Below, one piece after another: positions 1 to 35,244 of a stretch of DNA of 64,000 nucleotides (its first letter is position 1; every line of letters begins with the position of its first letter). The DNA is taken from positions 1 to 64,000 of the forward strand of contig CM039000.1 in NCBI GenBank assembly GCA_017499595.2. Direction: 5' to 3'. Origin of the DNA: Psilocybe cubensis. Its lineage: Eukaryota. The notes below the pieces were generated by a model that saw only the letters and a list, made by a program, of their open reading frames with translations, was not told the origin of the DNA and ran no database searches. Position numbers and translations under genes: made by a program.

Positions 1-140
1 TAAACCCTAAACCCTAAACCCTAAACCCTAAACCCTAAACCCTAAACCCTAAACCCTAAACCCTAAACCCTAAACCCTAAACCCTAAACCCTAAACCCTA
101 AACCCTAAACCCTAAACCCTAAACCCTAAACCCTAAACCC
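1..140. repeat. Terminal telomere tract (TAAACCC)n, i.e. TTTAGGG on the minus strand
   Basis: Perfect 7-mer tandem repeat at the window start, C-rich strand on +, which indicates a left chromosome end. Confidence 0.97.
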
Positions 141-742
141 TAAACCTAAACCTAAACCCTAAACCCTAAACCCTAAACCCTAACCTAACCCCAACCCTAA
201 GCTAACTAAGTCTAACCTTAGTAGGAAGTAAGGTAGGCGTGTGAACTTCCGAACGGCATGTGATTGTGAAGGGCCGGATCTAATTTAGTACATGGGAAAA
301 GTTACTTAGTACTTCGGGAAAAGTTCCTTAGTACCGTGGAAACATTTTTGATGGACCGGATCATGAACTGTCCAATTAAGATTCACAACAATCAATCATT
401 CTATTGTTTGATTGTTAGGTAAGGACCCAGGTAAGTTATTTATACTCTAGACATGTGAATATTCCCATGTCGCGGTTACTCGGAGCCACGTAACCAGAGT
501 AATCTATATCCATGTGATTCACATCACAGTCAATAACCCACGATGTCAAAGAACAAAAGTGTTGGATCCACTTTTGACAGGTTACCATGTGCCACATCGA
601 CCCGTGACACTCTGTTCATCAGAGACCTGTCTAACTTGACGATAAACATTGACAGATTTGTGATAGTCGGTAAGATACATGACAGCTGCGCAGCATCACT
701 TCACGCGCTGTCATCGGATGTCTAGAACATTCCTTCTAAGAA

Positions 743-1738: not shown

Positions 1739-1842
1739 CTTTCCATTTAACTCCCAGTTTAAACTAGTCGCTCGCACCTCGCTTCGCTCGGTGCTCGCTC
1801 CCCCCCTAAACCCAACGACTTTGCTATTATCCATCAGCCACT

Positions 1843-4800
1843 ATGTCATCTCAATACTCTGCTGCTTTCTCTCGTGCCATGTCCCCCACCCTGGACGCAC
1901 TCACCCAGGCCGTCGTCAACAACACCGTTTTCGGCGTCAACGATGAAGCAGGCCGCCATAACGCTCTGATCGACGAGCTGGCCACTGTGGTCATCAAAAA
2001 AATAGCTGAGTGCCGCTCCGTTGACCAAGTCATAGACTGCGTCTTTTTTGACTATCGTGCTGCCCTTAGGGAGTTTCTCCTCAACCTCGCATCGTGGTGC
2101 GATAAGAGGGAAACAGTCAAGGCTAGCCTCGAGCGCCTTGAATCTGCCGTTAGCGCAGGCAACACGCCCAATCGCCTTAAGGTGAAGGCACCCGAGTTCC
2201 AACTTACGAAGGAATTCGCGGATGCCGGGTCAGCGGAGGCTCTTCGAGTCTCCACTACGTTCTCTACCGCTCGTGACGCCTTCCAAAAGGCAATTAACGA
2301 CGGCGCCATTCAGGCGAAAAAGGACGAGCTGACTTTTTGGGATGATAAATGCGCACTCAACTCTTGCTACGAAGCTGCTGCCCTCATCGTTAAGGCAACT
2401 TACGATGATCGCAAATCCAGCTACAAGCTCCCTGTTTTCTCTACAGATAACAAGGGAGTTCGACGTATAGCAGAGTGGGTAGTGTCTCCGCAAAAGAAAG
2501 CCGAATGCAGTGCGCTGCAAACCATACTGCCGGCGATCTTTTCTCACATCAAACAAATTGTCAACATGCGCCACCGCGCTTTGGCAATTAAGATTGAGAA
2601 AAAGCGGACGACTGCGGCAACAGCCGATGTCGAGATGGCCGACGCGACCAAACCAGGTCCGTCGATTCAATCCCTTATTGATAAGGGCTTGAATGCACGT
2701 CTCAAGAAGCTCAACCTTGGATCTGTGGGCAAGAAGGCAAGTTTTCGTAACCCTTCACCCATAATTCTGGATACTAATTACTACTCTAATTACCCAGACT
2801 TTGTCTGGCCAGAATTCGTCCAAGGCTCCTCAACCTCAGGCCAAGAAAGCTGGCCCTTCGAAACCCAAGTCGTCGTCGACGCCTTCGCAACGCAAGCCTC
2901 AAACCAAGGCTTCCAACAAGGTCGACAACAAGAAGAAAGGGAAGGGGAGAGCTCCCGTCAAGAACGATCCAAAGGGAAAGGGAAAGGCAAGAGCCTAGAT
3001 GCGCGGTCTAATGTAGTACCTTTTACGTCGGTGAGACCCGCCTTCCCCAACTCTATTCCTGACGATATACTCACCATGACTAAAACAGACGCAGTTTCTT
3101 TCGTACACTTACATACTCCAATATCATTCTTGTTGGCTGGCCAGTATCGTAGTAGTGTACATTGTAGTCCTGGTGTTTCTGTCCCTGTTGATGTAGCAAA
3201 CGATCTCTCTCTCGGACTTAATTATATGTTTTTCACTCTGCCTTCTAAAAGTCTGATCATGCAAGCATGGAATGATTTCCAACGAAGAATAAGATGGCGT
3301 ATCTATTTTTTGTTTAAGGAAGGCATGAATAAACCTTTTGATCCAGATTATGGAGTAAGCTCAAAAAAGAAAGAGAAACCTCCTGTATTACCGCAATATA
3401 TGGAACTTGGCCTTTCGATGGGACGTCGGTACGTGCAACGCACGATCGCAAGTATCCCGGAAGAAGCCCTTACGGAGATGCGAAAGCACGCGTTCTCTCC
3501 TAAAAGGGACAAGATCCGTAAGTTTCTTATCGATAACAACTATGTTATTACGATGACAGATAAGAATCTTGGCCTCGCGGTGTCTGAACGCGACTGGATA
3601 TTAAGGAATGAGCTCAATCTTCTTGAAGATGAACGTAATTACGAAGAGTTAGAATTCGAAGTTGCGCAAGAAGTTATGAAGAGCAAAATGATTCAGATGC
3701 AAACGCTCGCACGTACTGTCGAAGATGAACATCTGTTTCTATTTGAACTTGGGTTGTCTCGATTCTTTCTATCGAATGTACCGGAAGACGGATCATCGTT
3801 CAAGTATCCTCAATTTCATGGTATACCTAAAATCCACAAGAAACCTACTGGATTTAGGCCCATAATTCCGTGTCACTCTGTAGTATTTAATCCTGCAGCC
3901 AAGTTTGTATCAAAAGAGCTTAAGCCGATTATTAAATCGACTCCTTCAATCATACACGGAACGAAGGATCTCTTTACGAGATTAAGCCAATTGCGTATAG
4001 ACTCCAAAAGACAATGGTATTTTGTCACTGGAGATGTAGTTGCTTTCTATCCCAATATTCCGTTGGACTTGTGCATCGAAATCGTTTGTAGTATGTACGA
4101 GGAATGGTTACTCAACGCTTCGGAAGAAAACACTGCATTAGCCCATATTAATCCAAATTCGTTAGAGAATAACTTGGTTAAATTGGGCATCTTTAAACGT
4201 GCTATCGAGATTGGCAATACGCAATTGATAACACAACATGGGTCTAGATATTTTAGACAAAAAAATGGCCTCGCAATGGGCGTCGCGGATTCTCCGGACC
4301 TTGCTAACCTCTTTGGAGCCCATTTTGAAATAAAGTCAAAAATCTTAGACCACCCAAACGTGGCCTTCTATGGAAGGTACATCGACGATTGTTTCGCAAT
4401 TGTTTACGCCGAGTCCGAAGCACTTGCACTTAATCTTATTAAAGAAACAATAAAGTTCGATGGTTGTGTTATCGAATGGGCTGTTTCCTCGTCGGGATGT
4501 CAATTTCTCGATGCTTTCATATTCAAGGAGTCTGGAAAACTTCATTGGAAGCCTTTTGTCAAGACAGGAAACAACCGAGAACGAGTTCCATGGGTATCAC
4601 ATCATCCTTTGGACGTCAAACGTGGCGTCTACATTGGAGAGTTATCCAGGTTAGCCGTGCTATGTAGTACCAAGGAAATCTACATCGGAGCAATTAGAGA
4701 CCTTAACGCTCTCTATTTGATGCGCGGTTATCCCGAAAACCTAGTCATATCTTGGTGTAAGAAGAATATACAAGAACGTTGGGAAAAGCGATTCGCTTTA

Positions 4801-5373
4801 CGAGTCGCAGAGCACGACGAATCCATTCTTGTACTTAAAACCAGATTTGATCAGGTATGGAATTGGTTTTCAGCTGCTGAACTTGGAAAAACTGTTACCG
4901 AGTACTGGTCGGCATGGTATGAACATGCCGAGAAAGGTTTGTATAGTGCAGACTCGTCCAGACCCCTTATCAAACCAGATCCAAATTACGTTCACGACCT
5001 CGATGATGTTCGCCCGGAGCTGTTCACACAGATCCTCGTGGACGGAGAAACTGAGTTCGTACCGGATTTGAGGAAGATAGGACTACTCGGAAGTCGTTGG
5101 ATAGTATCGCGAAAACGCAATACTAATCTTTTCGACCTTGCAAATGTGTGGAAGAAAACAGTCTTTCGTAAACTGGATGAAGACATCGCTGAAAAAGGTG
5201 GTGTTGTTCCCGAAACTCAAAACGTTAATGAAACTTATCATTCTGCTTTAGTTGAAGCTACTGAGCAGATAAGTATCGAAAGTGATAACGAGATAATACT
5301 TCATAGACGTTCAATCTCACAAGAGAGGGAACATCCAGAATTTGGCAGAATATCCAAATCTTACAACCGATGA
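1843..5373 (+). CDS. ORF1-reverse transcriptase polyprotein of a Penelope-like element (1176 aa), no GIY-YIG endonuclease
   Basis: PLE RT motifs: PKIHKKPTGFRPII, TGDVVAFYPNIP, QKNGLAMGVADSPDLANLF, YGRYIDD, FLD, and HHP..KRG...GELSR in the thumb. The N-terminus looks helical. Confidence 0.93.
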   Translation: MSSQYSAAFSRAMSPTLDALTQAVVNNTVFGVNDEAGRHNALIDELATVVIKKIAECRSVDQVIDCVFFDYRAALREFLLNLASWCDKRETVKASLERLESAVSAGNTPNRLKVKAPEFQLTKEFADAGSAEALRVSTTFSTARDAFQKAINDGAIQAKKDELTFWDDKCALNSCYEAAALIVKATYDDRKSSYKLPVFSTDNKGVRRIAEWVVSPQKKAECSALQTILPAIFSHIKQIVNMRHRALAIKIEKKRTTAATADVEMADATKPGPSIQSLIDKGLNARLKKLNLGSVGKKASFRNPSPIILDTNYYSNYPDFVWPEFVQGSSTSGQESWPFETQVVVDAFATQASNQGFQQGRQQEEREGESSRQERSKGKGKGKSLDARSNVVPFTSVRPAFPNSIPDDILTMTKTDAVSFVHLHTPISFLLAGQYRSSVHCSPGVSVPVDVANDLSLGLNYMFFTLPSKSLIMQAWNDFQRRIRWRIYFLFKEGMNKPFDPDYGVSSKKKEKPPVLPQYMELGLSMGRRYVQRTIASIPEEALTEMRKHAFSPKRDKIRKFLIDNNYVITMTDKNLGLAVSERDWILRNELNLLEDERNYEELEFEVAQEVMKSKMIQMQTLARTVEDEHLFLFELGLSRFFLSNVPEDGSSFKYPQFHGIPKIHKKPTGFRPIIPCHSVVFNPAAKFVSKELKPIIKSTPSIIHGTKDLFTRLSQLRIDSKRQWYFVTGDVVAFYPNIPLDLCIEIVCSMYEEWLLNASEENTALAHINPNSLENNLVKLGIFKRAIEIGNTQLITQHGSRYFRQKNGLAMGVADSPDLANLFGAHFEIKSKILDHPNVAFYGRYIDDCFAIVYAESEALALNLIKETIKFDGCVIEWAVSSSGCQFLDAFIFKESGKLHWKPFVKTGNNRERVPWVSHHPLDVKRGVYIGELSRLAVLCSTKEIYIGAIRDLNALYLMRGYPENLVISWCKKNIQERWEKRFALRVAEHDESILVLKTRFDQVWNWFSAAELGKTVTEYWSAWYEHAEKGLYSADSSRPLIKPDPNYVHDLDDVRPELFTQILVDGETEFVPDLRKIGLLGSRWIVSRKRNTNLFDLANVWKKTVFRKLDEDIAEKGGVVPETQNVNETYHSALVEATEQISIESDNEIILHRRSISQEREHPEFGRISKSYNR
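2737..2797 (+). other. Probable 61-nt GC-AG spliceosomal intron inside the ORF (equivalent position in all RT copies)
   Basis: Donor AAG|GCAAGT, CTAAT branch-like motifs, acceptor CCCAG|. Removing it joins codon 298 to the Lys-rich frame 2798-2998. Confidence 0.6.
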
Positions 5374-5422
5374 AAAGAATACTAGCGCTTAAGGCGTAAA
5401 GCATTAGAAAAAAACCCTAACC

Positions 5423-5485
5423 GTAAGTATTCCTTGCTATAAAGTAACAAACATCTACTTACAAGCAACACATTGGATTGAATAG
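5423..5485 (+). other. Possible 63-nt GT-AG spliceosomal intron in the 3' UTR, interrupting a telomere-like tract
   Basis: AACCCTAACC|GTAAGT...AATAG|CTAAACC, present after all 8 ORFs; the branch site is only weak. Confidence 0.4.
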
Positions 5486-6088
5486 CTAAACCTAAACCTA
5501 AACCCTAAACCCTAAACCCTAAACCCTAACCTAACCCCAACCCTAAGCTAACTAAGTCTAACCTTAGTAGGAAGTAAGGTAGGCGTGTGAACTTCCGAAC
5601 GGCATGTGATTGTGAAGGGCCGGATCTAATTTAGTACATGGGAAAAGTTACTTAGTACTTCGGGAAAAGTTCCTTAGTACCGTGGAAACATTTTTGATGG
5701 ACCGGATCATGAACTGTCCAATTAAGATTCACAACAATCAATCATTCTATTGTTTGATTGTTAGGTAAGGACCCAGGTAAGTTATTTATACTCTAGACAT
5801 GTGAATATTCCCATGTCGCGGTTACTCGGAGCCACGTAACCAGAGTAATCTATATCCATGTGATTCACATCACAGTCAATAACCCACGATGTCAAAGAAC
5901 AAAAGTGTTGGATCCACTTTTGACAGGTTACCATGTGCCACATCGACCCGTGACACTCTGTTCATCAGAGACCTGTCTAACTTGACGATAAACATTGACA
6001 GATTTGTGATAGTCGGTAAGATACATGACAGCTGCGCAGCATCACTTCACGCGCTGTCATCGGATGTCTAGAACATTCCTTCTAAGAA

Positions 6089-6155
6089 TAGCCACTGAAG
6101 AGTCTATAAAGACGAAAGGGCTGGTTGTTGGGATCCCCCAACAGCCCTCTGGCTA
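6089..6155 (+). ncRNA. Intact type I hammerhead ribozyme (3' pLTR of copy 1), predicted cleavage after C6149
   Basis: Stem I UAGCCA/UGGCUA, core CUGAAGA, stem II GUCU/AGAC, GAAA, stem III GGGCUG/CAGCCC, cleavage triplet CUC. Confidence 0.92.
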
Positions 6156-6230
6156 CTTTCCATTTAACTCCCAGTTTAAACTAGTCGCTCGCACCTCGCT
6201 TCGCTCGGTGCTCGCTCCCCCCCTAAACCC

Positions 6231-6270
6231 TAACCCTAAACCCTAAACCCTAAACCCTAAACCCTAAACC
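6231..6270. repeat. Interstitial telomeric tract capping a 5'-truncated copy
   Basis: (TAAACCC)n with one TAACCC variant; joins the element through ACCC microhomology. Confidence 0.9.
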
Positions 6271-9200
6271 CAGGCTGTCGTCAACAACACAGTTTTTGGC
6301 GTCAACGACGAAGCTGGCCGCCACAACGCCCTCATCGACGAGTTGGCCACTGTCGTCATCAAGAAAATAGCTGAGTGCCGCTCCATTGACCAGATTGTAG
6401 ACTGCGTCTTTTTTGACTATCGTGCTGCCCTTAGGGAGTTTCTCCTCAACCTCGCATCGTGGTGCGATAAGAGGGAAACAGTCAAGGCTAGCCTCGAGCG
6501 CCTTGAACTTGCCGTTAGCGCAGGCAACACCCCCAATCGCCTTCGGGTGAAGGCTCCCGAGTTCCAACTTACGAAGGAATTCGCGGATGCCGGGTCAGCG
6601 GAAGCTCTTCGAGTTTCCTCTACGTTCTCCACCGCTCGTGATGTCTTCCAAAAGGCAATCAACGACGGCGCCATTCAGGCGAAAAAGGACGAACTGGCCT
6701 TTTGGGATGATAAATGCGCACTCAATAACTGTTATGAAGCTGCTGCCCTCATCGTTAAGACAACTTACGATGATCGCAAATCCAGCTATAAGCTCCCCGT
6801 TTTCTCTACAGACAACAAGGGAGTTCGTCGAATAACAGATTGGGTAGTGTCACCGCAGAAGAAGGCTGAATGCAGCGCATTGCAAACCATTTTGCCAGCC
6901 ATCTTCTCTCATATCAAACAGATTGTCAACTTGCGCCACCGCGCTTTGGCAATCAAGATTGAGAAAAAGCGGTCGACTGCGGCAACAGCCGATGTCGAGA
7001 TGGCCGATGCGACCAAACCAGGTCCATCGATTCAATCCCTTATTGATAAGGGCTTGAATGCACGTCTCAAGAAGCTCAACCTTGGATCTGTGGGCAAGAA
7101 GGCAAGTTCTCGTAACCCTTCACCCATAATTCTGGATACTAATTACTATTCTAATTACCCAGACTTTGTCTGGCCAGAATTCGTCCAAGGCTCCTCAACC
7201 TCAGGCCAAGAAAGCTGGCCCTTCGAAATTCAAACCCTCGTCGACGCCTTCGCAGAAGAAGCCCCAAACCAAGGCTTCCAACAAGGTCGACAACAAGAAG
7301 AAAGGGAAGGGGAGAGCTCCCGTCAAGAACGATCCAAAGGGAAAGGGAAAGGCAAGAGCCTAGACGCGCGGTCTAATGTAGTACCTTTTACGTCGGTAAG
7401 ACCCGCCTTCCCCAACTCTATTCCTGACGATATACTCACCATGACTAAAACAGACGCAGTTTCTTTTGTACACTTACATACGCCGATCTCATTCTTGTTG
7501 GCTGGCCAGTATCGTAGTAGTGTACACTGTAGTCCTGGTGTGGTGGTCCCTGTAGATATAGCAAATGATTTGTCACTCGGACTCAATTATATGTTTTTTA
7601 CTCTACCTTCTCAAAGTCTGATCATGCAAGCATGGAATGATTTTCAACGAAGAATAAGATGGCGTATCTATTTTTTGTTTAAGGAAGGCATGAACAAACC
7701 TTTTGATCCAGATTACGGAGTAAGCTCAAAAAAGAAAGAGAAACCTCCAGTATTACCGCAATACATGGAACTTGGCCTTTCGATGGGACGTCGGTACGTG
7801 CAACGCACGATCGCAAGTATCCCGGAAGAAGCCCTTACGGAGATGCGAAAGCACGCGTTCTCTCCTAAAAGGGACAAGATCCGTAAGTTTCTTATCGATA
7901 ACAACTATGTTATTACGATGACAGATAAGAATCTTGGCCTCGCGGTGTCTGAACGCGACTGGATATTAAGGAATGAGCTCAATCTTCTTGAAGATGAACG
8001 TAACTATGAAGAGTTAGAATTCGAAGTTGCGCAAGAAGTAATGAAGAGCAAAATGATCCAGATGCAAACTCTTGCACGTACCGTCGAAGATGAACATCTG
8101 TTTCTATTTGAACTTGGATTGTCTCGATTCTTTCTATCGAATGTACCGGAAGACGGATCATCGTTCAAGTATCCTCAATTTCATGGTATACCTAAAATCC
8201 ACAAAAAACCTACTGGATTTAGGCCCATAATTCCGTGTCACTCTGTAGTATTTAATCCTGCAGCCAAGTTTGTATCAAAAGAGCTTAAGCCGATTATTAA
8301 ATCGACTCCTTCAATCATTCACGGAACGAAGGATCTCTTTACGAGATTAAGCCAATTGCGTATAGACCCCAAACGACAATGGTATTTTGTCACCGGGGAT
8401 GTAGTTGCTTTCTATCCCAATATTCCGTTGGACTTGTGCATCGAAATCGTTTGTAATATGTACGAGGAATGGTTACTCAACGCTTCGGAAGAAAACACTG
8501 CATTAGCCCATATTAATCCAAATTCGTTAGAGAATAACTTGGTTAAATTGGGCATCTTTAAACGTGCTATCGAGATTGGCAATACGCAATTGATAACACA
8601 ACATGGGTCTAGATATTTTAGACAAAAAAATGGCCTCGCAATGGGCGTCGCGGATTCTCCGGACCTTGCTAACCTCTTTGGAGCCCATTTTGAAATAAAG
8701 TCAAAAATCTTAGACCACCCAAACGTGGCCTTCTATGGAAGGTACATCGACGATTGTTTCGCAATTGTTTACGCCGAGTCCGAAGCACTTGCACTTAATC
8801 TTATTAAAGAAACAATAAAGTTCGATGGTTGTGTTATCGAATGGGCTGTTTCCTCGTCGGGATGTCAATTTCTCGATGCTTTCATATTCAAGGAGTCTGG
8901 AAAACTTCATTGGAAGCCATTTGTCAAGACAGGAAACAACCGAGAACGAGTTCCATGGGTATCACATCATCCTTTGGACGTCAAACGTGGCGTCTACATT
9001 GGAGAGTTATCCAGGTTAGCCGTGCTATGTAGTACCAAGGAAATCTACATCGGAGCAATTAGAGACCTTAACGCTCTCTATTTGATGCGCGGTTATCCCG
9101 AAAACCTAGTCATGTCTTGGTGTAAGAAGAATATACAAGAACGTTGGGAAAAGCGATTCGCTTTACGAGTCGCAGAGCACGACGAATCCATTCTTGTACT

Positions 9201-10446: not shown

Positions 10447-10517
10447 TAGCCACTGAAGAGTCTATAAAGACGAAAGGGCTGGCTGCTGATAACAATCAAC
10501 AGCCCTCTGGCCTTCTT
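10447..10517 (+). ncRNA. Intact hammerhead ribozyme (subfamily B variant)
   Basis: Same core; stem III loop GCTGCTGATAACAATCAA; stem I GCCA/UGGC extended by AAGAA/UUCUU. Confidence 0.85.
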
Positions 10518-10589
10518 TCCATTTAACTCACAGTTTAAACAAGTCGCTCGCACCTCGCTTCGCTCGGTGCTCGCTCCCCCCCTAAACCC

Positions 10590-21768: not shown

Positions 21769-21887
21769 CTTTCCATTTAACTCCCAGTTTAAACTAGTCG
21801 CTCGCACCTCGCTTCGCTCGGTGCTCGCTCCCCCCCTAAACCCTAAACCCTAAACCCTAAAACCCTAAACCCTAAACCCTAACCCCC

Positions 21888-25795: not shown

Positions 25796-25825
25796 CCCCT
25801 AAAACCCTAAACCCTAAACCCTAAC

Positions 25826-28800
25826 CCGGAAATGAACCTGTGGCTGTAATGGCTGATGTGGCGCCCCTTGGTAAAGGGCTTAAAGGGTATTAGCCTGCCA
25901 TGTCCAATGGCATGAGAGTGTCCCTTGGTAAAGGACTTAATAGGCAATAGCCTGCTCTTTTGTCATGAGCGGTATGTAGTGATCGTTTGCCTGTACGGTA
26001 GCGCCCATTGCTTGCACTGGTCCACGCCCGTAAAAAATCACGAGCCGCTGGCTTCTTTCCATTTTAACTCCCAGTTTAAACTAGTCGCTCGCACCTCGCT
26101 TCGCTCGGTGCTCGCTCCCCCCCTAAACCCAACGACTTTGCTATCACCCATCAGCCACTATGTCATCCCAATATTCTGCTGCTTTCTCTCGTGCCATGTC
26201 CCCCACCCTGGACGCACTCACCCAGGCCGTCGTCAACAACACCGTCTTCGGCGTCAACGATGAAGCAGGCCGCCAAAACGCTCTCATCGACGAGCTGGCC
26301 ACTGTGGTCATCAAGAAAATAGCTGAGTGCCGCTCCGTTGATCAAATAATAGACTGCGTCTTTTTTGACTATCGCGCTGCCCTTAGGGAGTTTCTCCTCA
26401 ACCTCGCATCGTGGTGCGACAAGAGGGAAACAGTCAGGGCTAGCCTTGAGCGCCTTGAACTTGCCGTTAGCGCAGGCAGCACCCCCAATCGCCTTAAGGT
26501 GAAGGCTCCCGAGTTCCAACTCACGAAGGAATTCGCGGATGCCGGGTCAGCGGAGGCTCTTCGAGTCTCTACTACGTTCTCCACCGCTCGTGACGTCTTC
26601 CAAAAGGCGATTAACGACGGCGCCATTCAGGCGAAAAAGGACGAACTGGCCTTTTGGGAGGATAAATGCGCACTCGCTTCTTGCTATGAAGCTGCTGCGG
26701 TCATCGTTAAGACAACTTACGAAGACCGCAAGTCCAGCTATAAGCTCCCCGTTTTCTCTACAGACAACAAGGGAGTTCGTCGCATAGCAGAGTGGGTAAC
26801 GTCGCCGCAAAAGAAAGCCGAGTGCAGTGCGCTGCAAACTATACTGCCGGCTATCTTTTCTCATATCAAACAAATTGTCAAATTGCGCCACCGCGCTTTG
26901 GCAATTAAGATTGAGAAAAAGCGGTCGACCGCGGCTACAGCCGATGTCGAGATGGCCGACGCGACCAAACCAGGTCCGTCGATTCAATCCCTTATTGATA
27001 AGGGCTTGAATGCACGTCTTAAGAAGCTCAACCTTGGATATGTGGGCAAGAAGGCAGGTTTTCGTAACCCTTCACCCATAACTTTGGATACTAATTATTA
27101 TTCTAATTACCCAGACTTCGTCTGGCCAGAGTTCGTCCAAGGCTCCTCAACCTCAGGCCAAGAAAACTGGCCCTTCGAAACCCAAGTCGTCGTCGACGCC
27201 TTCGCAACGCAAGCCTCAAACCAAGGCTTCCAACAAGGTCGACAACAAGAAGAAAGGGAAGGGGAGAGCTCCCGTCAAGAACAACGATCCAAAGGGAAAG
27301 GGAAAGGCAAGAGCCTAAACGCGCGGTCTAATGTAGTACCTTTTACGTCGGTAAGACCCGCTTTCCCCAACTCTATTCCTGACGATATACTCACCATGAC
27401 TAAAACAGACGCAGTTTCATTTGTACACCTCAATACCCCAATTTCTTTCTTATTGGCTGGCCAGTATAGATCTAGTGTACATTGTAGTCCTGGTGTTGTA
27501 GTTCCGGTTGATGTAGCAAACGACTTATCTCTCGGTTTAAATTATATGTTTTTCACACTGCCTTCTCAAAGTCTGATCATGCAAGCATGGAATGATTTTC
27601 AACGAAGAATAAGATGGCGTATCTATTTTTTGTTTAAAGAAGGCATGAATAAACCTTTTGATCCAGATTATGGAGTAAGTTCTAAGAAAAAAGAAAAACC
27701 TCCTGTATTACCGCAATTTATGGAACTTGGCCTTTCAATGGGACGTCGGTACGTTATTAAAACGATCGCAAGTATCCCGGAAGAAGCCCTCAAGGAGATG
27801 CGAAAGCACGCGTTCTCTCCTAAAAGGGACAAGATCCAAAAGTTTCTTATCGATAACAACTATGTTATTACGATGACAGATAAGAATCTTGGCCTCGCGG
27901 TGTCTGAACGCGACTGGATATTAAGGAATGAGCTCAATCTTCTTGAAGATGAACGTAATTACGAAGAGCTAGAATTCGAAGTTGCGCAAGAAGTAATGAA
28001 GAGCAAAATGATCCAGATGCAAACTCTTGCACGTACCGTCGAAGATGAACATCTGTTTCTATTTGAACTTGGGTTGTCTCGATTCTTTCTATCGAATGTA
28101 CCGGAAGACGGATCATCGTTCAAGTATCCTCAATTTCATGGTATACCTAAAATCCACAAAAAACCTACTGGATTTAGGCCCATAATTCCGTGTCACTCTG
28201 TAGTATTTAATCCTGCAGCCAAGTTTGTATCAAAAGAGCTTAAGCCGATTATTAAATCGACTCCTTCAATCATTCACGGAACGAAGGATCTCTTTACGAG
28301 ATTAAGCCAATTGCGTATAGACCCCAAACGACAATGGTATTTTGTCACCGGGGATGTAGTTGCTTTCTATCCCAATATTCCGTTGGACTTGTGCATCGAA
28401 ATCGTTTGTAATATGTACGAGGAATGGTTACTCAACGCTTCGGAAGAAAACACTGCATTAGCCCATATTAATCCAAATTCGTTAGAGAATAACTTGGTTA
28501 AATTGGGCATCTTTAAACGTGCTATCGAGATTGGCAATACGCAATTGATAACACAACATGGGTCTAGATATTTTAGACAAAAAAATGGCCTCGCAATGGG
28601 CGTCGCGGATTCTCCGGACCTTGCTAACCTCTTTGGAGCCCATTTTGAAATAAAGTCAAAAATCTTAGACCACCCAAACGTGGCCTTCTATGGAAGGTAC
28701 ATCGACGATTGTTTCGCAATTGTTTACGCCGAGTCCGAAGCACTTGCACTTAATCTTATTAAAGAAACAATAAAGTTCGATGGTTGTGTTATCGAATGGG

Positions 28801-30545
28801 CTGTTTCCTCGTCGGGATGTCAATTTCTCGATGCTTTCATATTCAAGGAGTCTGGAAAACTTCATTGGAAGCCATTTGTCAAGACAGGAAACAACCGAGA
28901 ACGAGTTCCATGGGTATCACATCATCCTTTGGACGTCAAACGTGGCGTCTACATTGGAGAGTTATCCAGGTTAGCCGTGCTATGTAGTACCAAGGAAATC
29001 TACATCGGAGCAATTAGAGACCTTAACGCTCTCTATTTGATGCGCGGTTATCCCGAAAACCTAGTCATGTCTTGGTGTAAGAAGAATATACAAGAACGTT
29101 GGGAAAAGCGATTCGCTTTACGAGTCGCAGAGCACGACGAATCCATTCTTGTACTTAAAACCAGATTTGATCAGGTATGGAATTGGTTTTCAGCTGCTGA
29201 ACTTGGAAAGACTGTTACCGAGTACTGGTCGGCATGGTATGAACATGCCGAGAAAGGTCTGTATAGTGCAGACTCGTCCAGACCCCTTATCAAACCAGAT
29301 CCAAATTACGTTCACGACCTCGATGATGTTCGCCCGGAGCTGTTCACACAGATCCTCGTGGACGGAGAAACTGAGTTCGTACCGGATTTGAGGAAGATAG
29401 GACTACTCGGAAGTCGTTGGATAGTATCGCGAAAGCGCAATACTAATCTTTTCGACCTTGCAAATGTGTGGAAGAAAACAGTCTTTCGTAAACTGGATGA
29501 AAACATCGCTGAAAAAGGTGGTGTTGTTCCCGAAACTCAAAACGTTAATGAAACTTATCACTCTGCTCTAGTTGAAGCTGCTGAACAGATAAGTATCGAA
29601 AGTGATAACGAGATAATACTTCATAGACGTTCAATCTCACAAGAGAGGGAACATCCAGAATTCGGCAGAATATCCAAATCTTACAACCGATGAAAAGAAT
29701 ACTAGCGCGTAAGGCGTAAAGCATTAGAAAAAAACCCTAACCGTAAGTATTCCTTGCTATAAAGTAACAAACATCTACTTACAAGCAACACTTTGGATTA
29801 AATAGCTAAACCTAAACCCTAAACCCTAAACCCTAAACCCTAACCTAACCCCAACCCTAAGCTAACTAAGTCTAACCTTAGTAGGAAGTAAGGTAGGCGT
29901 GTGAACTTCCGAACGGCACGTGATTGTGAAGGGCCGGATCTAATTTAGTACATGGGAAAAGTTACTTAGTACTTCGGGAAAAGTTCCTTAGTACCGTGGA
30001 AACATTTTTGATGGACCGGATCATGAACTGTCCAATTAAGATTCACAACAATCAATCATTCTATTGTTTGATTGTTAGGTAAGGACCCAGGTAAGCTATT
30101 TATACTCTAGACATGTGAATATTCCCATGTCGCGGTTACTCGGAGCCACGTAACCAGAGTAATCTATATCCATGTGATTCACATCACAGTCAATAACCCA
30201 CGATGTCAAAGAACAAAAGTGTTGGATCCACTTTTGACAGGTTACCATGTGCCACATCGACCCGTGACACTCTGTTCATCAGAGACCTGTCTAACTTGAC
30301 AATAAACATTGACAGATTTGTGATAGTCGGTAAGATACATGACAGCTGCGCAGCATCACTTCACGCGCTGTCATCGGATGTCTAGAACATTCCTTCTAAG
30401 AATAGCCACTGAAGAGTCTATAAAGACGAAAGGGCTGGTTGTTGGGATCCCCCAACAGCCCTCTGGCTTCTTTCCATTTTAACTCCCAGTTTAAACTAGT
30501 CGCTCGCACCTCGCTTCGCTCGGTGCTCGCTCCCCCCCTAAACCC
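25826..30545 (+). mobile_element. PLE copy 6, subfamily C, 5'-truncated inside the group I intron (remnant ~25826-26047); intact hammerhead in the 3' pLTR at ~30403-30468
   Basis: Telomere repeats join CCGGAAATGAACC, which matches the intron from ~1510; the remnant runs to GAGCCG|CTGGCT. Confidence 0.9.
26160..29693 (+). CDS. ORF1-RT polyprotein (1177 aa)
   Basis: Intact, with PLE RT motifs. Confidence 0.93.
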   Translation: MSSQYSAAFSRAMSPTLDALTQAVVNNTVFGVNDEAGRQNALIDELATVVIKKIAECRSVDQIIDCVFFDYRAALREFLLNLASWCDKRETVRASLERLELAVSAGSTPNRLKVKAPEFQLTKEFADAGSAEALRVSTTFSTARDVFQKAINDGAIQAKKDELAFWEDKCALASCYEAAAVIVKTTYEDRKSSYKLPVFSTDNKGVRRIAEWVTSPQKKAECSALQTILPAIFSHIKQIVKLRHRALAIKIEKKRSTAATADVEMADATKPGPSIQSLIDKGLNARLKKLNLGYVGKKAGFRNPSPITLDTNYYSNYPDFVWPEFVQGSSTSGQENWPFETQVVVDAFATQASNQGFQQGRQQEEREGESSRQEQRSKGKGKGKSLNARSNVVPFTSVRPAFPNSIPDDILTMTKTDAVSFVHLNTPISFLLAGQYRSSVHCSPGVVVPVDVANDLSLGLNYMFFTLPSQSLIMQAWNDFQRRIRWRIYFLFKEGMNKPFDPDYGVSSKKKEKPPVLPQFMELGLSMGRRYVIKTIASIPEEALKEMRKHAFSPKRDKIQKFLIDNNYVITMTDKNLGLAVSERDWILRNELNLLEDERNYEELEFEVAQEVMKSKMIQMQTLARTVEDEHLFLFELGLSRFFLSNVPEDGSSFKYPQFHGIPKIHKKPTGFRPIIPCHSVVFNPAAKFVSKELKPIIKSTPSIIHGTKDLFTRLSQLRIDPKRQWYFVTGDVVAFYPNIPLDLCIEIVCNMYEEWLLNASEENTALAHINPNSLENNLVKLGIFKRAIEIGNTQLITQHGSRYFRQKNGLAMGVADSPDLANLFGAHFEIKSKILDHPNVAFYGRYIDDCFAIVYAESEALALNLIKETIKFDGCVIEWAVSSSGCQFLDAFIFKESGKLHWKPFVKTGNNRERVPWVSHHPLDVKRGVYIGELSRLAVLCSTKEIYIGAIRDLNALYLMRGYPENLVMSWCKKNIQERWEKRFALRVAEHDESILVLKTRFDQVWNWFSAAELGKTVTEYWSAWYEHAEKGLYSADSSRPLIKPDPNYVHDLDDVRPELFTQILVDGETEFVPDLRKIGLLGSRWIVSRKRNTNLFDLANVWKKTVFRKLDENIAEKGGVVPETQNVNETYHSALVEAAEQISIESDNEIILHRRSISQEREHPEFGRISKSYNR

Positions 30546-30563
30546 TAAACCCTAAACCCTAAA

Positions 30564-33500
30564 CCCTTGGTAAAGGGCTTAAAGGGTATTAGCCTGCCAT
30601 GTCCAATGGCATGAGAGTGTCCCTTGGTAAAGGACTTAATAGGCAATAGCCTGCTCTTTTGTCATGAGCGGTATGTAGTGATCGTTTGCCTGTACGGTAG
30701 CGCCCATTGCTTGCACTGGTCCACGCCCGTAAAAAATCACGAGCCGCTGGCTTCTTTCCATTTTAACTCCCAGTTTAAACTAGTCGCTCGCACCTCGCTT
30801 CGCTCGGTGCTCGCTCCCCCCCTAAACCCAACGACTTTGCTATCACCCATCAGCCACTATGTCATCCCAATATTCTGCTGCTTTCTCTCGTGCCATGTCC
30901 CCCACCCTGGACGCACTCACCCAGGCCGTCGTCAACAACACCGTCTTCGGCGTCAACGATGAAGCAGGCCGCCAAAACGCTCTCATCGACGAGCTGGCCA
31001 CTGTGGTCATCAAGAAAATAGCTGAGTGCCGCTCCGTTGATCAAATAATAGACTGCGTCTTTTTTGACTATCGCGCTGCCCTTAGGGAGTTTCTCCTCAA
31101 CCTCGCATCGTGGTGCGACAAGAGGGAAACAGTCAGGGCTAGCCTTGAGCGCCTTGAACTTGCCGTTAGCGCAGGCAGCACCCCCAATCGCCTTAAGGTG
31201 AAGGCTCCCGAGTTCCAACTCACGAAGGAATTCGCGGATGCCGGGTCAGCGGAGGCTCTTCGAGTCTCTACTACGTTCTCCACCGCTCGTGACGTCTTCC
31301 AAAAGGCGATTAACGACGGCGCCATTCAGGCGAAAAAGGACGAACTGGCCTTTTGGGAGGATAAATGCGCACTCGCTTCTTGCTATGAAGCTGCTGCGGT
31401 CATCGTTAAGACAACTTACGAAGACCGCAAGTCCAGCTATAAGCTCCCCGTTTTCTCTACAGACAACAAGGGAGTTCGTCGCATAGCAGAGTGGGTAACG
31501 TCGCCGCAAAAGAAAGCCGAGTGCAGTGCGCTGCAAACTATACTGCCGGCTATCTTTTCTCATATCAAACAAATTGTCAAATTGCGCCACCGCGCTTTGG
31601 CAATTAAGATTGAGAAAAAGCGGTCGACCGCGGCTACAGCCGATGTCGAGATGGCCGACGCGACCAAACCAGGTCCGTCGATTCAATCCCTTATTGATAA
31701 GGGCTTGAATGCACGTCTTAAGAAGCTCAACCTTGGATATGTGGGCAAGAAGGCAGGTTTTCGTAACCCTTCACCCATAACTTTGGATACTAATTATTAT
31801 TCTAATTACCCAGACTTCGTCTGGCCAGAGTTCGTCCAAGGCTCCTCAACCTCAGGCCAAGAAAACTGGCCCTTCGAAACCCAAGTCGTCGTCGACGCCT
31901 TCGCAACGCAAGCCTCAAACCAAGGCTTCCAACAAGGTCGACAACAAGAAGAAAGGGAAGGGGAGAGCTCCCGTCAAGAACAACGATCCAAAGGGAAAGG
32001 GAAAGGCAAGAGCCTAAACGCGCGGTCTAATGTAGTACCTTTTACGTCGGTAAGACCCGCTTTCCCCAACTCTATTCCTGACGATATACTCACCATGACT
32101 AAAACAGACGCAGTTTCATTTGTACACCTCAATACCCCAATTTCTTTCTTATTGGCTGGCCAGTATAGATCTAGTGTACATTGTAGTCCTGGTGTTGTAG
32201 TTCCGGTTGATGTAGCAAACGACTTATCTCTCGGTTTAAATTATATGTTTTTCACACTGCCTTCTCAAAGTCTGATCATGCAAGCATGGAATGATTTTCA
32301 ACGAAGAATAAGATGGCGTATCTATTTTTTGTTTAAAGAAGGCATGAATAAACCTTTTGATCCAGATTATGGAGTAAGTTCTAAGAAAAAAGAAAAACCT
32401 CCTGTATTACCGCAATTTATGGAACTTGGCCTTTCAATGGGACGTCGGTACGTTATTAAAACGATCGCAAGTATCCCGGAAGAAGCCCTCAAGGAGATGC
32501 GAAAGCACGCGTTCTCTCCTAAAAGGGACAAGATCCAAAAGTTTCTTATCGATAACAACTATGTTATTACGATGACAGATAAGAATCTTGGCCTCGCGGT
32601 GTCTGAACGCGACTGGATATTAAGGAATGAGCTCAATCTTCTTGAAGATGAACGTAATTACGAAGAGCTAGAATTCGAAGTTGCGCAAGAAGTAATGAAG
32701 AGCAAAATGATCCAGATGCAAACTCTTGCACGTACCGTCGAAGATGAACATCTGTTTCTATTTGAACTTGGGTTGTCTCGATTCTTTCTATCGAATGTAC
32801 CGGAAGACGGATCATCGTTCAAGTATCCTCAATTTCATGGTATACCTAAAATCCACAAAAAACCTACTGGATTTAGGCCCATAATTCCGTGTCACTCTGT
32901 AGTATTTAATCCTGCAGCCAAGTTTGTATCAAAAGAGCTTAAGCCGATTATTAAATCGACTCCTTCAATCATTCACGGAACGAAGGATCTCTTTACGAGA
33001 TTAAGCCAATTGCGTATAGACCCCAAACGACAATGGTATTTTGTCACCGGGGATGTAGTTGCTTTCTATCCCAATATTCCGTTGGACTTGTGCATCGAAA
33101 TCGTTTGTAATATGTACGAGGAATGGTTACTCAACGCTTCGGAAGAAAACACTGCATTAGCCCATATTAATCCAAATTCGTTAGAGAATAACTTGGTTAA
33201 ATTGGGCATCTTTAAACGTGCTATCGAGATTGGCAATACGCAATTGATAACACAACATGGGTCTAGATATTTTAGACAAAAAAATGGCCTCGCAATGGGC
33301 GTCGCGGATTCTCCGGACCTTGCTAACCTCTTTGGAGCCCATTTTGAAATAAAGTCAAAAATCTTAGACCACCCAAACGTGGCCTTCTATGGAAGGTACA
33401 TCGACGATTGTTTCGCAATTGTTTACGCCGAGTCCGAAGCACTTGCACTTAATCTTATTAAAGAAACAATAAAGTTCGATGGTTGTGTTATCGAATGGGC

Positions 33501-35244
33501 TGTTTCCTCGTCGGGATGTCAATTTCTCGATGCTTTCATATTCAAGGAGTCTGGAAAACTTCATTGGAAGCCATTTGTCAAGACAGGAAACAACCGAGAA
33601 CGAGTTCCATGGGTATCACATCATCCTTTGGACGTCAAACGTGGCGTCTACATTGGAGAGTTATCCAGGTTAGCCGTGCTATGTAGTACCAAGGAAATCT
33701 ACATCGGAGCAATTAGAGACCTTAACGCTCTCTATTTGATGCGCGGTTATCCCGAAAACCTAGTCATGTCTTGGTGTAAGAAGAATATACAAGAACGTTG
33801 GGAAAAGCGATTCGCTTTACGAGTCGCAGAGCACGACGAATCCATTCTTGTACTTAAAACCAGATTTGATCAGGTATGGAATTGGTTTTCAGCTGCTGAA
33901 CTTGGAAAGACTGTTACCGAGTACTGGTCGGCATGGTATGAACATGCCGAGAAAGGTCTGTATAGTGCAGACTCGTCCAGACCCCTTATCAAACCAGATC
34001 CAAATTACGTTCACGACCTCGATGATGTTCGCCCGGAGCTGTTCACACAGATCCTCGTGGACGGAGAAACTGAGTTCGTACCGGATTTGAGGAAGATAGG
34101 ACTACTCGGAAGTCGTTGGATAGTATCGCGAAAGCGCAATACTAATCTTTTCGACCTTGCAAATGTGTGGAAGAAAACAGTCTTTCGTAAACTGGATGAA
34201 AACATCGCTGAAAAAGGTGGTGTTGTTCCCGAAACTCAAAACGTTAATGAAACTTATCATTCTGCTCTAGTTGAAGCTGCTGAACAGATAAGTATCGAAA
34301 GTGATAACGAGATAATACTTCATAGACGTTCAATCTCACAAGAGAGGGAACATCCAGAATTCGGCAGAATATCCAAATCTTACAACCGATGAAAAGAATA
34401 CTAGCGCGTAAGGCGTAAAGCATTAGAAAAAAACCCTAACCGTAAGTATTCCTTGCTATAAAGTAACAAACATCTACTTACAAGCAACACTTTGGATTAA
34501 ATAGCTAAACCTAAACCCTAAACCCTAAACCCTAAACCCTAACCTAACCCCAACCCTAAGCTAACTAAGTCTAACCTTAGTAGGAAGTAAGGTAGGCGTG
34601 TGAACTTCCGAACGGCATGTGATTGTGAAGGGCCGGATCTAATTTAGTACATGGGAAAAGTTACTTAGTACTTCGGGAAAAGTTCCTTAGTACCGTGGAA
34701 ACATTTTTGATGGACCGGATCATGAACTGTCCAATTAAGATTCACAACAATCAATCATTCTATTGTTTGATTGTTAGGTAAGGACCCAGGTAAGCTATTT
34801 ATACTCTAGACATGTGAATATTCCCATGTCGCGGTTACTCGGAGCCACGTAACCAGAGTAATCTATATCCATGTGATTCACATCACAGTCAATAACCCAC
34901 GATGTCAAAGAACAAAAGTGTTGGATCCACTTTTGACAGGTTACCATGTGCCACATCGACCCGTGACACTCTGTTCATCAGAGACCTGTCTAACTTGACA
35001 ATAAACATTGACAGATTTGTGATAGTCGGTAAGATACATGACAGCTGCGCAGCATCACTTCACGCGCTGTCATCGGATGTCTAGAACATTCCTTCTAAGA
35101 ATAGCCACTGAAGAGTCTATAAAGACGAAAGGGCTGGTTGTTGGGATCCCCCAACAGCCCTCTGGCTTCTTTCCATTTTAACTCCCAGTTTAAACTAGTC
35201 GCTCGCACCTCGCTTCGCTCGGTGCTCGCTCCCACCCTAAACCC
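30564..35244 (+). mobile_element. PLE copy 7, subfamily C, 5'-truncated inside the group I intron (remnant ~30564-30746); intact hammerhead at ~35102-35167
   Basis: Telomere repeats join CCCTTGGTAAAGGGC, which matches the intron from ~1549. Confidence 0.9.
30859..34392 (+). CDS. ORF1-RT polyprotein (1177 aa)
   Basis: Intact; protein matches 26160-29693. Confidence 0.93.
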   Translation: MSSQYSAAFSRAMSPTLDALTQAVVNNTVFGVNDEAGRQNALIDELATVVIKKIAECRSVDQIIDCVFFDYRAALREFLLNLASWCDKRETVRASLERLELAVSAGSTPNRLKVKAPEFQLTKEFADAGSAEALRVSTTFSTARDVFQKAINDGAIQAKKDELAFWEDKCALASCYEAAAVIVKTTYEDRKSSYKLPVFSTDNKGVRRIAEWVTSPQKKAECSALQTILPAIFSHIKQIVKLRHRALAIKIEKKRSTAATADVEMADATKPGPSIQSLIDKGLNARLKKLNLGYVGKKAGFRNPSPITLDTNYYSNYPDFVWPEFVQGSSTSGQENWPFETQVVVDAFATQASNQGFQQGRQQEEREGESSRQEQRSKGKGKGKSLNARSNVVPFTSVRPAFPNSIPDDILTMTKTDAVSFVHLNTPISFLLAGQYRSSVHCSPGVVVPVDVANDLSLGLNYMFFTLPSQSLIMQAWNDFQRRIRWRIYFLFKEGMNKPFDPDYGVSSKKKEKPPVLPQFMELGLSMGRRYVIKTIASIPEEALKEMRKHAFSPKRDKIQKFLIDNNYVITMTDKNLGLAVSERDWILRNELNLLEDERNYEELEFEVAQEVMKSKMIQMQTLARTVEDEHLFLFELGLSRFFLSNVPEDGSSFKYPQFHGIPKIHKKPTGFRPIIPCHSVVFNPAAKFVSKELKPIIKSTPSIIHGTKDLFTRLSQLRIDPKRQWYFVTGDVVAFYPNIPLDLCIEIVCNMYEEWLLNASEENTALAHINPNSLENNLVKLGIFKRAIEIGNTQLITQHGSRYFRQKNGLAMGVADSPDLANLFGAHFEIKSKILDHPNVAFYGRYIDDCFAIVYAESEALALNLIKETIKFDGCVIEWAVSSSGCQFLDAFIFKESGKLHWKPFVKTGNNRERVPWVSHHPLDVKRGVYIGELSRLAVLCSTKEIYIGAIRDLNALYLMRGYPENLVMSWCKKNIQERWEKRFALRVAEHDESILVLKTRFDQVWNWFSAAELGKTVTEYWSAWYEHAEKGLYSADSSRPLIKPDPNYVHDLDDVRPELFTQILVDGETEFVPDLRKIGLLGSRWIVSRKRNTNLFDLANVWKKTVFRKLDENIAEKGGVVPETQNVNETYHSALVEAAEQISIESDNEIILHRRSISQEREHPEFGRISKSYNR

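Follow-up and report, generated by a model that had tools for sequence, protein, structure and literature searches.

The stretch of Psilocybe cubensis DNA analyzed here (64 kb, referred to below in its full length as the window) starts at a chromosome end and carries, at positions 1–41784, an array of eight predicted endonuclease-less (Coprina-type) Penelope-like elements (PLEs). In part of these elements a group I intron is nested in a hammerhead ribozyme, and it is found only in the pseudo-long terminal repeat (pLTR) upstream of the open reading frame (ORF) for the reverse transcriptase (RT), never in a downstream pLTR of the window. Our preferred reading, to which we give a little less than an even chance, is that the asymmetry reflects pLTRs that would be rebuilt in each replication cycle around a seam at the hammerhead site, with the intron as a probably dispensable mobile rider in the 5' leader. 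All results on P. cubensis refer to this one chromosome end, and other organisms were covered by contigs.

The telomere repeat (CCCTAAA)n was found at positions 5–183, and short telomere blocks part the units down to position 41784. The eight long RT ORFs all lie on the + strand (8/8), with the sense direction running from the chromosome end inward, and many units are truncated at their 5' ends. Complete units have the order t-a-b-c-ORF-tail-t-a-b, in which t is a telomere-like block whose length and spelling are family-specific and constant (39 nucleotides (nt) in A, 32 in B, and 33 in C), a and b (positions 1–620 and 621–690) together form the pLTR of 690 bp, and c, located 3' of b, is CCCCTAAACCC, one and a half telomere repeats. 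The telomere blocks found 3' of the downstream pLTRs are variable in length (7 to 109 nt) and therefore mark joints of separate additions. A blastn search with the pLTR at 5530–6219 (690 bp) yielded 11 uninterrupted full copies and two partial ones (35963–36256 and 36306–36580), two interrupted pLTRs (184–803 plus 1729–1802, and 15797–16416 plus 17342–17415), and two upstream pLTR ends reduced to approximately the last 74 nt (26045–26119 and 30744–30818). By self-comparison the elements fall into the subfamilies A (copies 1 and 4), B (copies 2 and 3, with copy 8 as variant B2), and C (copies 5, 6, and 7), and the types of ORF and pLTR agree in 8/8 elements. Right after b and before the 5' untranslated region (UTR), the window (1803–1813) has a single telomere-like repeat, CCCTAA(A)CC, as have the upstream junctions of the related loci displayed, and the position of this repeat c resembles that expected of a primer-binding site for a telomeric G-overhang.

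The assignment to the PLEs is based on both the encoded protein and the layout of the array. The ORF product of copy 1 (1176 amino acids, aa) contains the motifs TMTDKN and GRYIDDCF (YIDD) in its translation and is 99% identical to P. cubensis proteins named reverse transcriptase or hypothetical; the source name of a 99% identical protein is reverse transcriptase domain protein, and its precomputed Pfam annotation lists PF00078. Three RT proteins were scanned against Pfam, with 0 families reported, so that the missing GIY-YIG match is weak evidence, and a PDB profile search with the RT protein gave 0 matches. Traits of PLEs found in the array are the terminal location, the inward sense strand, telomere repeats at the 3' junctions, and 5' truncations; of these, the first is in line with an element that has no endonuclease, as is the presence of telomere repeats between the units. 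The Drosophila elements HeT-A and TART likewise form terminal arrays in head-to-tail order with their 3' ends pointing to the centromere, are truncated at the 5' end to varying degrees, and carry a promoter within the region of the terminal repeats; they differ from this array in that they belong to another RT clade and have neither ribozymes nor telomerase repeats between their units. Endonuclease-less Coprina-type PLEs are described, in the accessible portions of two reports (PMC8557442, PMC13159263), as terminal and 5'-truncated with telomere repeats between units. The elements of the window resemble these known PLEs, as far as those descriptions extend, in having a single RT ORF with a DKN motif, flanking direct repeats, head-to-tail terminal arrays parted by telomere repeats, and short reverse-complement telomere repeats beside the hammerhead, but they differ by the 929-nt intron of the self-splicing type within the hammerhead of one pLTR copy.

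The boundary between a and b is the predicted cleavage site of a type I hammerhead ribozyme, which by sequence reading spans pLTR positions ~555 to ~627. It consists of helix I (UAGCCA/UGGCUA), the core CUGAAGA, a short helix II, GAAA, and a long helix III, followed by U, C, and the predicted cleavage site. Exactly 13 intact hammerheads were detected in positions 1–44000 by a finder for motif and pairing; the junction CCCTC|TGGC is common to 13/13, with no extra nucleotides at any of them. The minimum free energy fold of the uninterrupted A-type hammerhead is a three-way junction, and the Rfam hammerhead matches were all below threshold (RAGATH-1, 29.1 bits versus a gathering score of 56.3, at 5/13). 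Self-cleavage after C17 is predicted. For related hammerheads of fungal PLEs that have a long helix III, the available part of the report on them (PMC4209133) describes in vitro cleavage as efficient monomers, and the type I hammerheads described there have in common with those of the window the CUGANGA...GAAA...UH core, an open helix I, a short helix II, a long helix III, and the occurrence in both pLTRs. Two features set the window apart from that description: loop II is a conserved TATA-like motif, and some upstream cores are split between U16.1 and C17 by a second ribozyme.

The TATA-like loop II (TATAAA, TATTTAAA, or TATATAAA) was present in the window and also in 19/19 hammerheads that the finder detected in 17 of 32 related loci (hammerheads of L001–L026), the loci having been obtained by scanning metagenome contigs with an RT alignment. 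The stems of helix II covary while the loop stays TATA-like. In every pLTR this loop (757–762 in copy 1) lies 44 nt before C17, and one short sequence may thus serve as both ribozyme loop and promoter TATA box. If it is a promoter, the transcript would start near the seam and could not hold the upstream t and a. A second TATA of the window considered as promoter, 48 nt ahead of t within the 3' tail, was rejected, as the other loci do not conserve it.

In copies 1 and 4 the pLTR is broken after position 619/620 by 929 nt, within which Rfam identified a group I intron (RF00028) at 1087–1383 and 16700–16996 (70.9 bits, gathering score 50, E 5.6e-16). In our interpretation this catalytic core comprises P2–P9, and the intron is of a nuclear, IC1-like type. 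One ambiguous C at the junction was assigned by the group I rule, which gives an exon ending in ACAGCCCU, an intron C...G, and a 3' exon starting with CUGGCUAC; by this placement the intron is located between U16.1 and C17 of the hammerhead. The 5' exon of copy 1 (...ACAGCCCU) has a U before the 5' splice site, the terminal G of the intron is seen in the window as ...GAGCCG|CUGGCUAC, and the joined form of positions 802 and 1732 in other runs implies that the intron ends are CA..CG. A candidate internal guide sequence at 1092–1099 (GGGGTTGT in the strand shown, GGGGUUGU in the pairing) adjoins the 5' side of the putative P2 and would pair over 8 bp, the U.G pair included, with the last 8 nucleotides of the 5' exon (ACAGCCCT). 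In shuffled sequences 8 bp were found anywhere in 212/5000 cases and within 10 nt of this place in 7/5000. In folds of the split hammerhead without the 3' exon helix I cannot form, and the intron is therefore predicted to disable the hammerhead that it splits. The intron appears to be of the self-splicing type, and splicing is predicted, with the exact intron-less forms as an indirect sign; these forms, however, can be read either as spliced or as never invaded.

Two other ideas about the insert were rejected. A homing endonuclease gene is not apparent, the longest overlapping ORFs in the intron being only 108, 69, and 41 aa. Capture of an excised intron by two template jumps at the hammerhead cut predicts ...CCCUC(G)CAAG...GAGCCG|UGGC, but ...CCCU|CAAG...GAGCCG|CUGGC was observed. 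The region from the 5' splice site to the guide (803–1086, ~285 nt) is unusually long as a P1 loop. The periphery of the intron further contains a repeated hairpin module of ~33 nt (CCCTTGGTAAAGG.CTTAA...AGCCT) at 1548–1580 and 1606–1640. All known nuclear group I introns interrupt ribosomal RNA (rRNA) genes in the ribosomal DNA (rDNA), as stated in the accessible text of two papers (PMC3679873, PMC8395846). Compared with these Tetrahymena-type introns, as far as they are covered there, the intron of the window is alike in its P3–P9 core, the U.G pair at the guide, the terminal G, the G+C-rich composition, and the lack of an ORF, and unlike in its location in a telomeric retrotransposon, in the ~285 nt between splice site and guide, and in the ~350 nt that follow P9. 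Twin-ribozyme introns (PMC4167309, seen in part) offer a parallel in that two ribozymes are nested and one conditions the fate of the other's RNA. In those introns a lariat-capping ribozyme resides inside a group I intron, whereas here a splicing ribozyme lies inside a cleaving one, without a homing endonuclease gene and in a retroelement instead of the rDNA.

In an nhmmer search of the 64 kb, intron sequence was confined to four places: 803–1731, 16416–17344, 25825–26047, and 30564–30746. The intron is thus present at 4/6 upstream junctions, whole in copies 1 and 4 and as 3' remnants in copies 6 and 7, with copies 3 and 8 lacking it, and at 0/8 downstream and 0/3 ORF-less junctions; in copies 2 and 5 the truncation lies within the ORF, which leaves no upstream junction to count. 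Fisher's exact test gives nominal p-values of 0.006 (4/6 versus 0/11) and, for A and C only, 0.008 (4/4 versus 0/5), which overstate independence because the copies share ancestry. These counts agree with an earlier sequence-only reading of this DNA, which had described the intron as restricted to upstream pLTRs; its assignment of full introns to copies 1 and 4 and of 3' remnants to copies 6 and 7 was reproduced with Rfam, blastn, and nhmmer, and its 13 intron-less hammerheads with a precise junction are those that share CCCTC|TGGC. The same reading had named misassembly or DNA-level duplication of the four intron-bearing copies as a case that would overturn it. Such an artefact, with the intron-bearing copies derived from a single segmental event, could account for the near-identity of copies 1 and 4 (99.88% over 6036 nt) and of copies 6 and 7 (99.9% over 4703 nt), but we consider it very improbable and largely refuted. 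On neither side does copy 1 have the same neighbour as copy 4, copies 6 and 7 differ in the truncation points of their introns and in the length of the flanking telomere blocks, contigs of the independent run X11 cover the intron, intron-less joined forms occur in other runs, and the same architecture recurs in unrelated metagenome contigs.

The sequence-only reading had further treated A and C as two diverged subfamilies in which the asymmetry is replicated, and this argument did not hold. Over the shared 222 nt the introns of A and C are 100% identical (0 differences), although the ORFs differ at 141 of 3531 alignment columns (96.0% identity, ~4% apart) and the first exon differences between A and C lie only 7 and 14 nt 3' of the intron. 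At the rates of neighbouring sequence, 222 nt without a difference would be expected with a probability of ~1e-4 to 3e-4. Since part a is almost identical in A and C as well, the intron together with a was recently exchanged or spread between them, with a boundary at the intron–exon junction, and A and C are therefore not independent replicates. In run X9, from another organism, a 4429-nt contig of unit-cycle length joins position 802 to 1732, with 1 and 0 differences in the two flanks, and thus an A-type element without the intron in its upstream pLTR exists elsewhere. The intron is evidently dispensable and polymorphic, and its gain or loss recent, as judged from these comparisons. In run X11 the whole intron is covered and the joined form is also present, run X18 (presumed RNA) provided a single 152-nt contig restricted to 184–312, and intron coverage in run X13 is limited to 874–1024. 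Short-read contigs break in the 70-nt part b, which is shared by both contexts, and are thus unusable for phasing the intron with pLTR position.

A second, distant lineage with the same arrangement was found among the 32 metagenomic loci, of which L001–L020 were evaluated at the Rfam gathering threshold and L021–L032 by E-value. Loci L027–L030 form one family with 88–91% identical DNA, and their RT is 25–32% identical to that of the window. Locus L028 has a group I intron upstream of the ORF (57 bits, Rfam), L027 carries the 3' part of the intron at its truncated 5' end, and L029 is an interstitial 5'-truncated copy that starts inside the intron. In its downstream pLTR, position 451 of L028 is joined directly to 1591, which defines an intron of 1139 nt that is preceded by U and ends with G (L028 ...GCUUG|UUCAUUUU). 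In L027–L029 the intron is upstream in 3/3 cases and absent from the single downstream pLTR observed, that of L029. This intron is inserted not before C17 but in the 3' strand of helix I, 6 nt after the predicted cleavage site, so that the positions in the two families are 6–7 nt apart. Part b of L029 is 96.9% identical between upstream and downstream pLTRs and 86% identical to that of L028. Between the catalytic cores of the window and L028, nine pairs are changed on both sides and still paired (P3 3, P5 2, P6 2, and P9 2; counted manually in the Rfam alignments of the two sequences), and the hairpin module of the window intron occurs almost identically in the L028 intron (735–768 and 1526–1559). 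The shared module and the nine compensatory pairs indicate that the two introns are diverged homologues under structural selection.

Elsewhere among the loci, no group I intron was matched in L001–L020 at the Rfam gathering threshold, and nhmmer searches with both introns over all 32 loci found homologues in L027–L029 only; many of the other loci look like collapsed-cycle contigs, so that this result is no evidence of absence. Seven loci (L002, L006, L011, L017, L020, L022, and L026) have exact terminal overlaps of 77–127 nt and lengths of approximately one unit (4.3–4.7 kb). Such cycle-like contigs could be the product of tandem or pLTR collapse or could be true circular molecules, and collapse could have dropped an intron branch. 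The L028 intron has ~410 nt at the place of 803–1086 in the window, with little sequence similarity. The copy in L029 is flanked by a 56-bp direct duplication (1000–1055 and 5393–5448, 94.6% identical), and telomere repeats are missing from its 3' end. Four 5'-truncated copies end in the intron (window 25825 and 30564, L029 1056, and L027 ~122), and in three of these four the truncation lies 60–170 nt 3' of the catalytic core. In these small numbers it looks as if the folded ribozyme may stall the reverse transcriptase.

The sequences flanking the intron evolve in concert. All pLTRs were aligned after removal in silico of the introns of copies 1 and 4, which gave 38 variable columns, and in 4/4 elements with two full pLTRs (copies 1, 3, 4, and 8) the upstream and downstream pLTRs are the same at 38/38 of them; part b is also identical upstream and downstream in copies 6 and 7. 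Of the seven differences between copies 1 and 4 (in 6036 positions), two represent one G/A change, at pLTR position 458, whose derived G is private to copy 1 and found in both of its pLTRs. The concerted columns and this private variant are incompatible with independent lineages of upstream and downstream repeats. In the window a and b are found in five haplotype combinations (aA+bA, aA+bC, aB+bB, aB2+bB, and aB+bS), and a sixth one, aB+bC, can be read from a loose end in run X11. Between copies 3 and 8 there are seven differences in the last 14 nt of a, none in b, and two in the next ~2000 nt in unit order, which places a boundary within ~10 nt of the cleavage site, at the same point in both pLTRs. 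This boundary is the sole sharply mapped one, the downstream boundary between A and C being resolved only to ~370 nt. The full-length copies 1, 3, and 8 have the t block of their own family upstream of a, and copy 4 stops in the last t repeat. Besides these upstream copies t occurs only after the ORF tail, from which we infer that the upstream t and a were copied from the tail-t-a context. The divergence of the subfamilies is mosaic along the unit: in the comparison of 17345–21832 with 26048–30534, for example, the first ~1900 nt (b, 5' UTR, and the N-terminal half of the ORF) differ by 6–10% and the RT half by 0–2% at the nucleotide level. This pattern points to frequent recombination among co-resident lineages.

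According to the favoured explanation, the two pLTRs of an element would not be two inherited lineages but would be rebuilt, nearly or entirely every cycle, from single-copy stretches of RNA, with the hammerhead site as the seam. The genomic RNA would start inside the upstream pLTR, past the loop II TATA and close to the seam, and continue through b, c, the ORF, the tail, t, and the downstream a. A telomeric G-overhang would prime complementary DNA (cDNA) synthesis on the telomere-complementary repeat after b, and at the 5' end of the RNA the RT would shift to the 3'-proximal t and a and copy them again, which would create the upstream t and a. Being located just 3' of the seam, the intron would ride in the 5' leader, be copied once, and land upstream only. 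The downstream seam would be unable to hold the intron, since it would need, or be made from, hammerhead-processed ends, which a split hammerhead could not supply; moreover, an intron placed downstream could remove itself by splicing, its 5' exon being complete. The intron would be gained and lost between lineages and would not act as an obligatory protector. Identical terminal repeats that are rebuilt in each cycle, a promoter in the repeat, an unspliced RNA as genome, and a primer-binding site just 3' of the upstream repeat are familiar from LTR retroelements and retroviruses. The scheme proposed here would differ from theirs in that the G-overhang of the chromosome serves as primer, an integrase is missing, an RNase H domain was not detected, and an intron distinguishes the two repeats, a difference for which the retroviral scheme leaves no room. 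Internal initiation by a PLE reverse transcriptase near the pLTR–ORF junction has been reported (PMC11167929). In retrozymes, unit RNAs running from hammerhead to hammerhead form circles, according to the part of the source available (10.64898/2026.07.22.740005). As in the retrozymes and hammerhead circular RNAs described in the accessible text of that source and of PMC7229834, a hammerhead-bounded unit RNA is proposed as replicative form and the joining of cut ends would re-create an uninterrupted hammerhead; retrozymes, however, are short and non-autonomous, whereas the unit of the window encodes an RT and has a group I intron at one junction.

Several points weigh against this explanation. 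The transcription start, the RNA ends, and the splice state are all inferred. The geometry covers the concerted evolution of t and a but not that of b in the intron-bearing lineages, which would need either priming on c of processed RNA or homogenisation before the arrival of the intron. The 13 letter-perfect a|b junctions would fit ligated or never-cut templates better than error-prone template jumps. At most two intron placements are independent (the window and L028 families), and both would be upstream by chance with a probability of 0.25. In the L028 family, the search for P1 returned only candidates of 4–5 bp and none at the expected place, the hammerhead has no TATA loop, and the unspliced hammerhead retains a helix I of 6 bp, so that the argument that a split ribozyme cannot cleave fails there. 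Finally, a single chromosome end of this genome was examined.

One competitor is passive inheritance, in which the intron was inserted once into an upstream pLTR, a colinear RNA (t a I b c ORF tail t a b, with I for the intron) is copied through, and gene conversion or unequal exchange at the DNA level homogenises the flanks, the 929-nt heterology halting conversion tracts at the intron. We regard it as unlikely, although several observations suit it. The state of the intron is lineage-specific (4/4 visible upstream junctions in A and C versus 0/2 in B), subtelomeres often recombine, and the mosaic divergence along the unit is a sign of frequent recombination; a published model also has PLE RNAs of more than one unit copied through (PMC11167929). 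Conversion would, however, have to produce a match at 38/38 columns in 4/4 elements, including a private variant between copies only 0.12% apart, and to carry into both pLTRs the C-type changes that lie beside the intron, at distances of 7 and 14 nt, without transferring the intron. The boundary between copies 3 and 8, which falls on the seam in both pLTRs alike, also speaks against it, as do the t upstream of a and the promoter-like TATA in the pLTR, which argue that the upstream t and a cannot come from the element's own transcript. The asymmetry, the second lineage, and the concerted flanks around an upstream-only intron together suggest that the copying cycle is involved beyond passive inheritance. 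The proposal of the sequence-only reading that the replication cycle maintains the asymmetry stands to this extent, without the support it had drawn from A and C.

That reading had also suggested that the intron is what keeps the 5' pLTR on the RNA: the upstream hammerhead would remove the 5' pLTR, unspliced RNA would escape, and the intron would be selected or domesticated as a blocker of cleavage. The position between U16.1 and C17 abolishes helix I, the fungal PLE hammerheads covered in the available part of PMC4209133 are efficient monomers, and the presence in two families of an intron beside the cleavage site, 6–7 nt apart, suggests a favoured neighbourhood. Nevertheless, the intron-less copies 3 and 8 are full-length, with intact upstream hammerheads, and like the X9 contig they retain the 5' pLTR, so that this pLTR can be kept without an intron and a protective role is quite unlikely. 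If transcription starts past the loop II TATA, the upstream hammerhead would be incompletely transcribed and need no protection; the unspliced form of the L028 family keeps its 6-bp helix I; and the concerted flanks would be left unexplained. To a model with two RNAs from one master, which refines the other option of that reading, namely intron-less repeats as cDNA of spliced RNA, we likewise give little credence. In it the RT would start at c of a spliced, hammerhead-cut, and translated RNA, copy b, and jump to the hammerhead-made 3' end of a long unspliced RNA, which it would copy in full, so that the spliced form would always end up in the downstream pLTR and the unspliced one upstream. Such a model would account for the concerted b, with the downstream b derived anew from the upstream b, and for the strictly spliced form downstream; it fits internal initiation near the pLTR–ORF junction and the predicted RT dimer (PMC11167929) as well as the conservation of repeat c after b in the upstream pLTR–ORF junctions of the loci displayed, and would also yield intron-less progeny like the X9 contig. 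In return the two molecules, derived from a single master, would have to pair strictly in cis (8/8 elements agree in ORF and pLTR type), the model would not homogenise a unless t and a were also copied again, and no extra nucleotides were seen at any of the 13 junctions. The intron could lastly be a working switch, which we think improbable. Splicing would complete the hammerhead and thus set the balance between processed unit RNA or mRNA and an uncut, leader-bearing genomic RNA, comparable to the choice between spliced and unspliced RNA in retroviruses; the intron, whose guide matches the end of the downstream a, could also ligate this end to its own 3' exon and thus circularise the unit, and would spread by reverse splicing into an RNA that encodes an RT. 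If true, it would be the first nuclear group I ribozyme outside the rDNA, in what is probably an RNA polymerase II transcript, the only hint at the polymerase being the TATA.

The features of the array, all on the + strand, are arranged as follows. The terminal telomere, written as the C-strand (CCCTAAA)n, occupies 1–183, with the family-specific t block of copy 1 as its final ~40 nt. Copy 1 (subfamily A) continues with part a of the upstream pLTR (pLTR positions 1–619; 184–802), which ends with the 5' part of the hammerhead and helix III up to U16.1, the group I intron of 929 nt (803–1731; placement ambiguous by 1 nt), part b (1732–1802; C17, the 3' strand of helix I, and a conserved hairpin), c and a short 5' UTR (1803–1842), the RT ORF of 1176 aa (1843–5373), the 3' tail with the internal telomere-like block t (5374–5529), and the downstream pLTR (5530–6219), whose intact hammerhead has C17 at 6149. 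Copy 2 (B; 6269–9855, ORF 6343–9738) is 5'-truncated within the ORF and followed by its downstream pLTR (9895–10578, intact hammerhead, C17 at 10507). Copy 3 (B) begins, after a B-type t block, with an upstream pLTR without intron (10695–11378) and has its RT ORF at 11419–14949 and its downstream pLTR at 15106–15789, both pLTRs having intact hammerheads (C17 at 11307 and 15718). Copy 4 (A) comprises part a (15797–16415), the intron (16416–17344, one difference from copy 1 in 929 nt), part b (17345–17415), the RT ORF (17456–20986), and the downstream pLTR (21143–21832, intact hammerhead, C17 at 21762).

The three C-type elements come next. Copy 5 (21883–25064, ORF 22137–24947) is again 5'-truncated within the ORF, with a downstream pLTR at 25098–25788 (intact hammerhead, C17 at 25717). 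Copy 6, 5'-truncated within the intron, retains a 3' remnant of 223 nt (25825–26047), a part b with C-type variants (26048–26119), the RT ORF (26160–29693), and a downstream pLTR with intact hammerhead (29844–30534, C17 at 30463). The remnant of copy 7 (183 nt, 30564–30746), with a truncation point unlike that of copy 6, is followed by part b (30747–30818), the RT ORF (30859–34392), and the downstream pLTR (34543–35233, intact hammerhead, C17 at 35162). The array had been thought to end at 35244, which is too short. Three ORF-less pLTRs with intact hammerheads follow, one full (35269–35951, C17 at 35881) and two 5'-truncated, from pLTR position 398 (35963–36256, C17 at 36186) and from position 417 (36306–36580, C17 at 36509), and copy 8 (B2) with its pLTRs extends to 41720. 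This copy consists, after a t block, of an upstream pLTR without intron (36628–37310, C17 at 37239), the RT ORF (37351–40881), and the downstream pLTR (41038–41720, C17 at 41649), both hammerheads being intact, and the innermost telomere block (41721–41784) ends the array. The subtelomere beyond it (41785–64000) contains only short ORFs (<=234 aa from ATG and <=309 aa with alternative starts), without further telomere blocks or tandem repeats, and its final 4 kb are strongly A-rich on the + strand.

In full-text searches no description of a group I intron in a PLE was found, with most papers in subscription journals, including the main ones of the Arkhipova laboratory on terminal PLEs, outside the reach of these searches. 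A group I intron that is nested in a PLE hammerhead and confined to the upstream pLTR looks new. Nuclear group I introns are stated, in the accessible parts of PMC3679873 and PMC8395846, to be confined to the rDNA, and the intron of the window is in a telomeric retrotransposon, nested in a second ribozyme. A long-standing idea, expressed in the part of PMC1299323 available, attributes the spread of group I introns to reverse splicing and subsequent reverse transcription; a host RNA with a reverse transcriptase gene of its own now allows a direct test of this route. For the PLEs themselves, the combination of identical repeats, a seam at the hammerhead, and a one-sided intron provides a natural marker for how these elements build their pLTRs.

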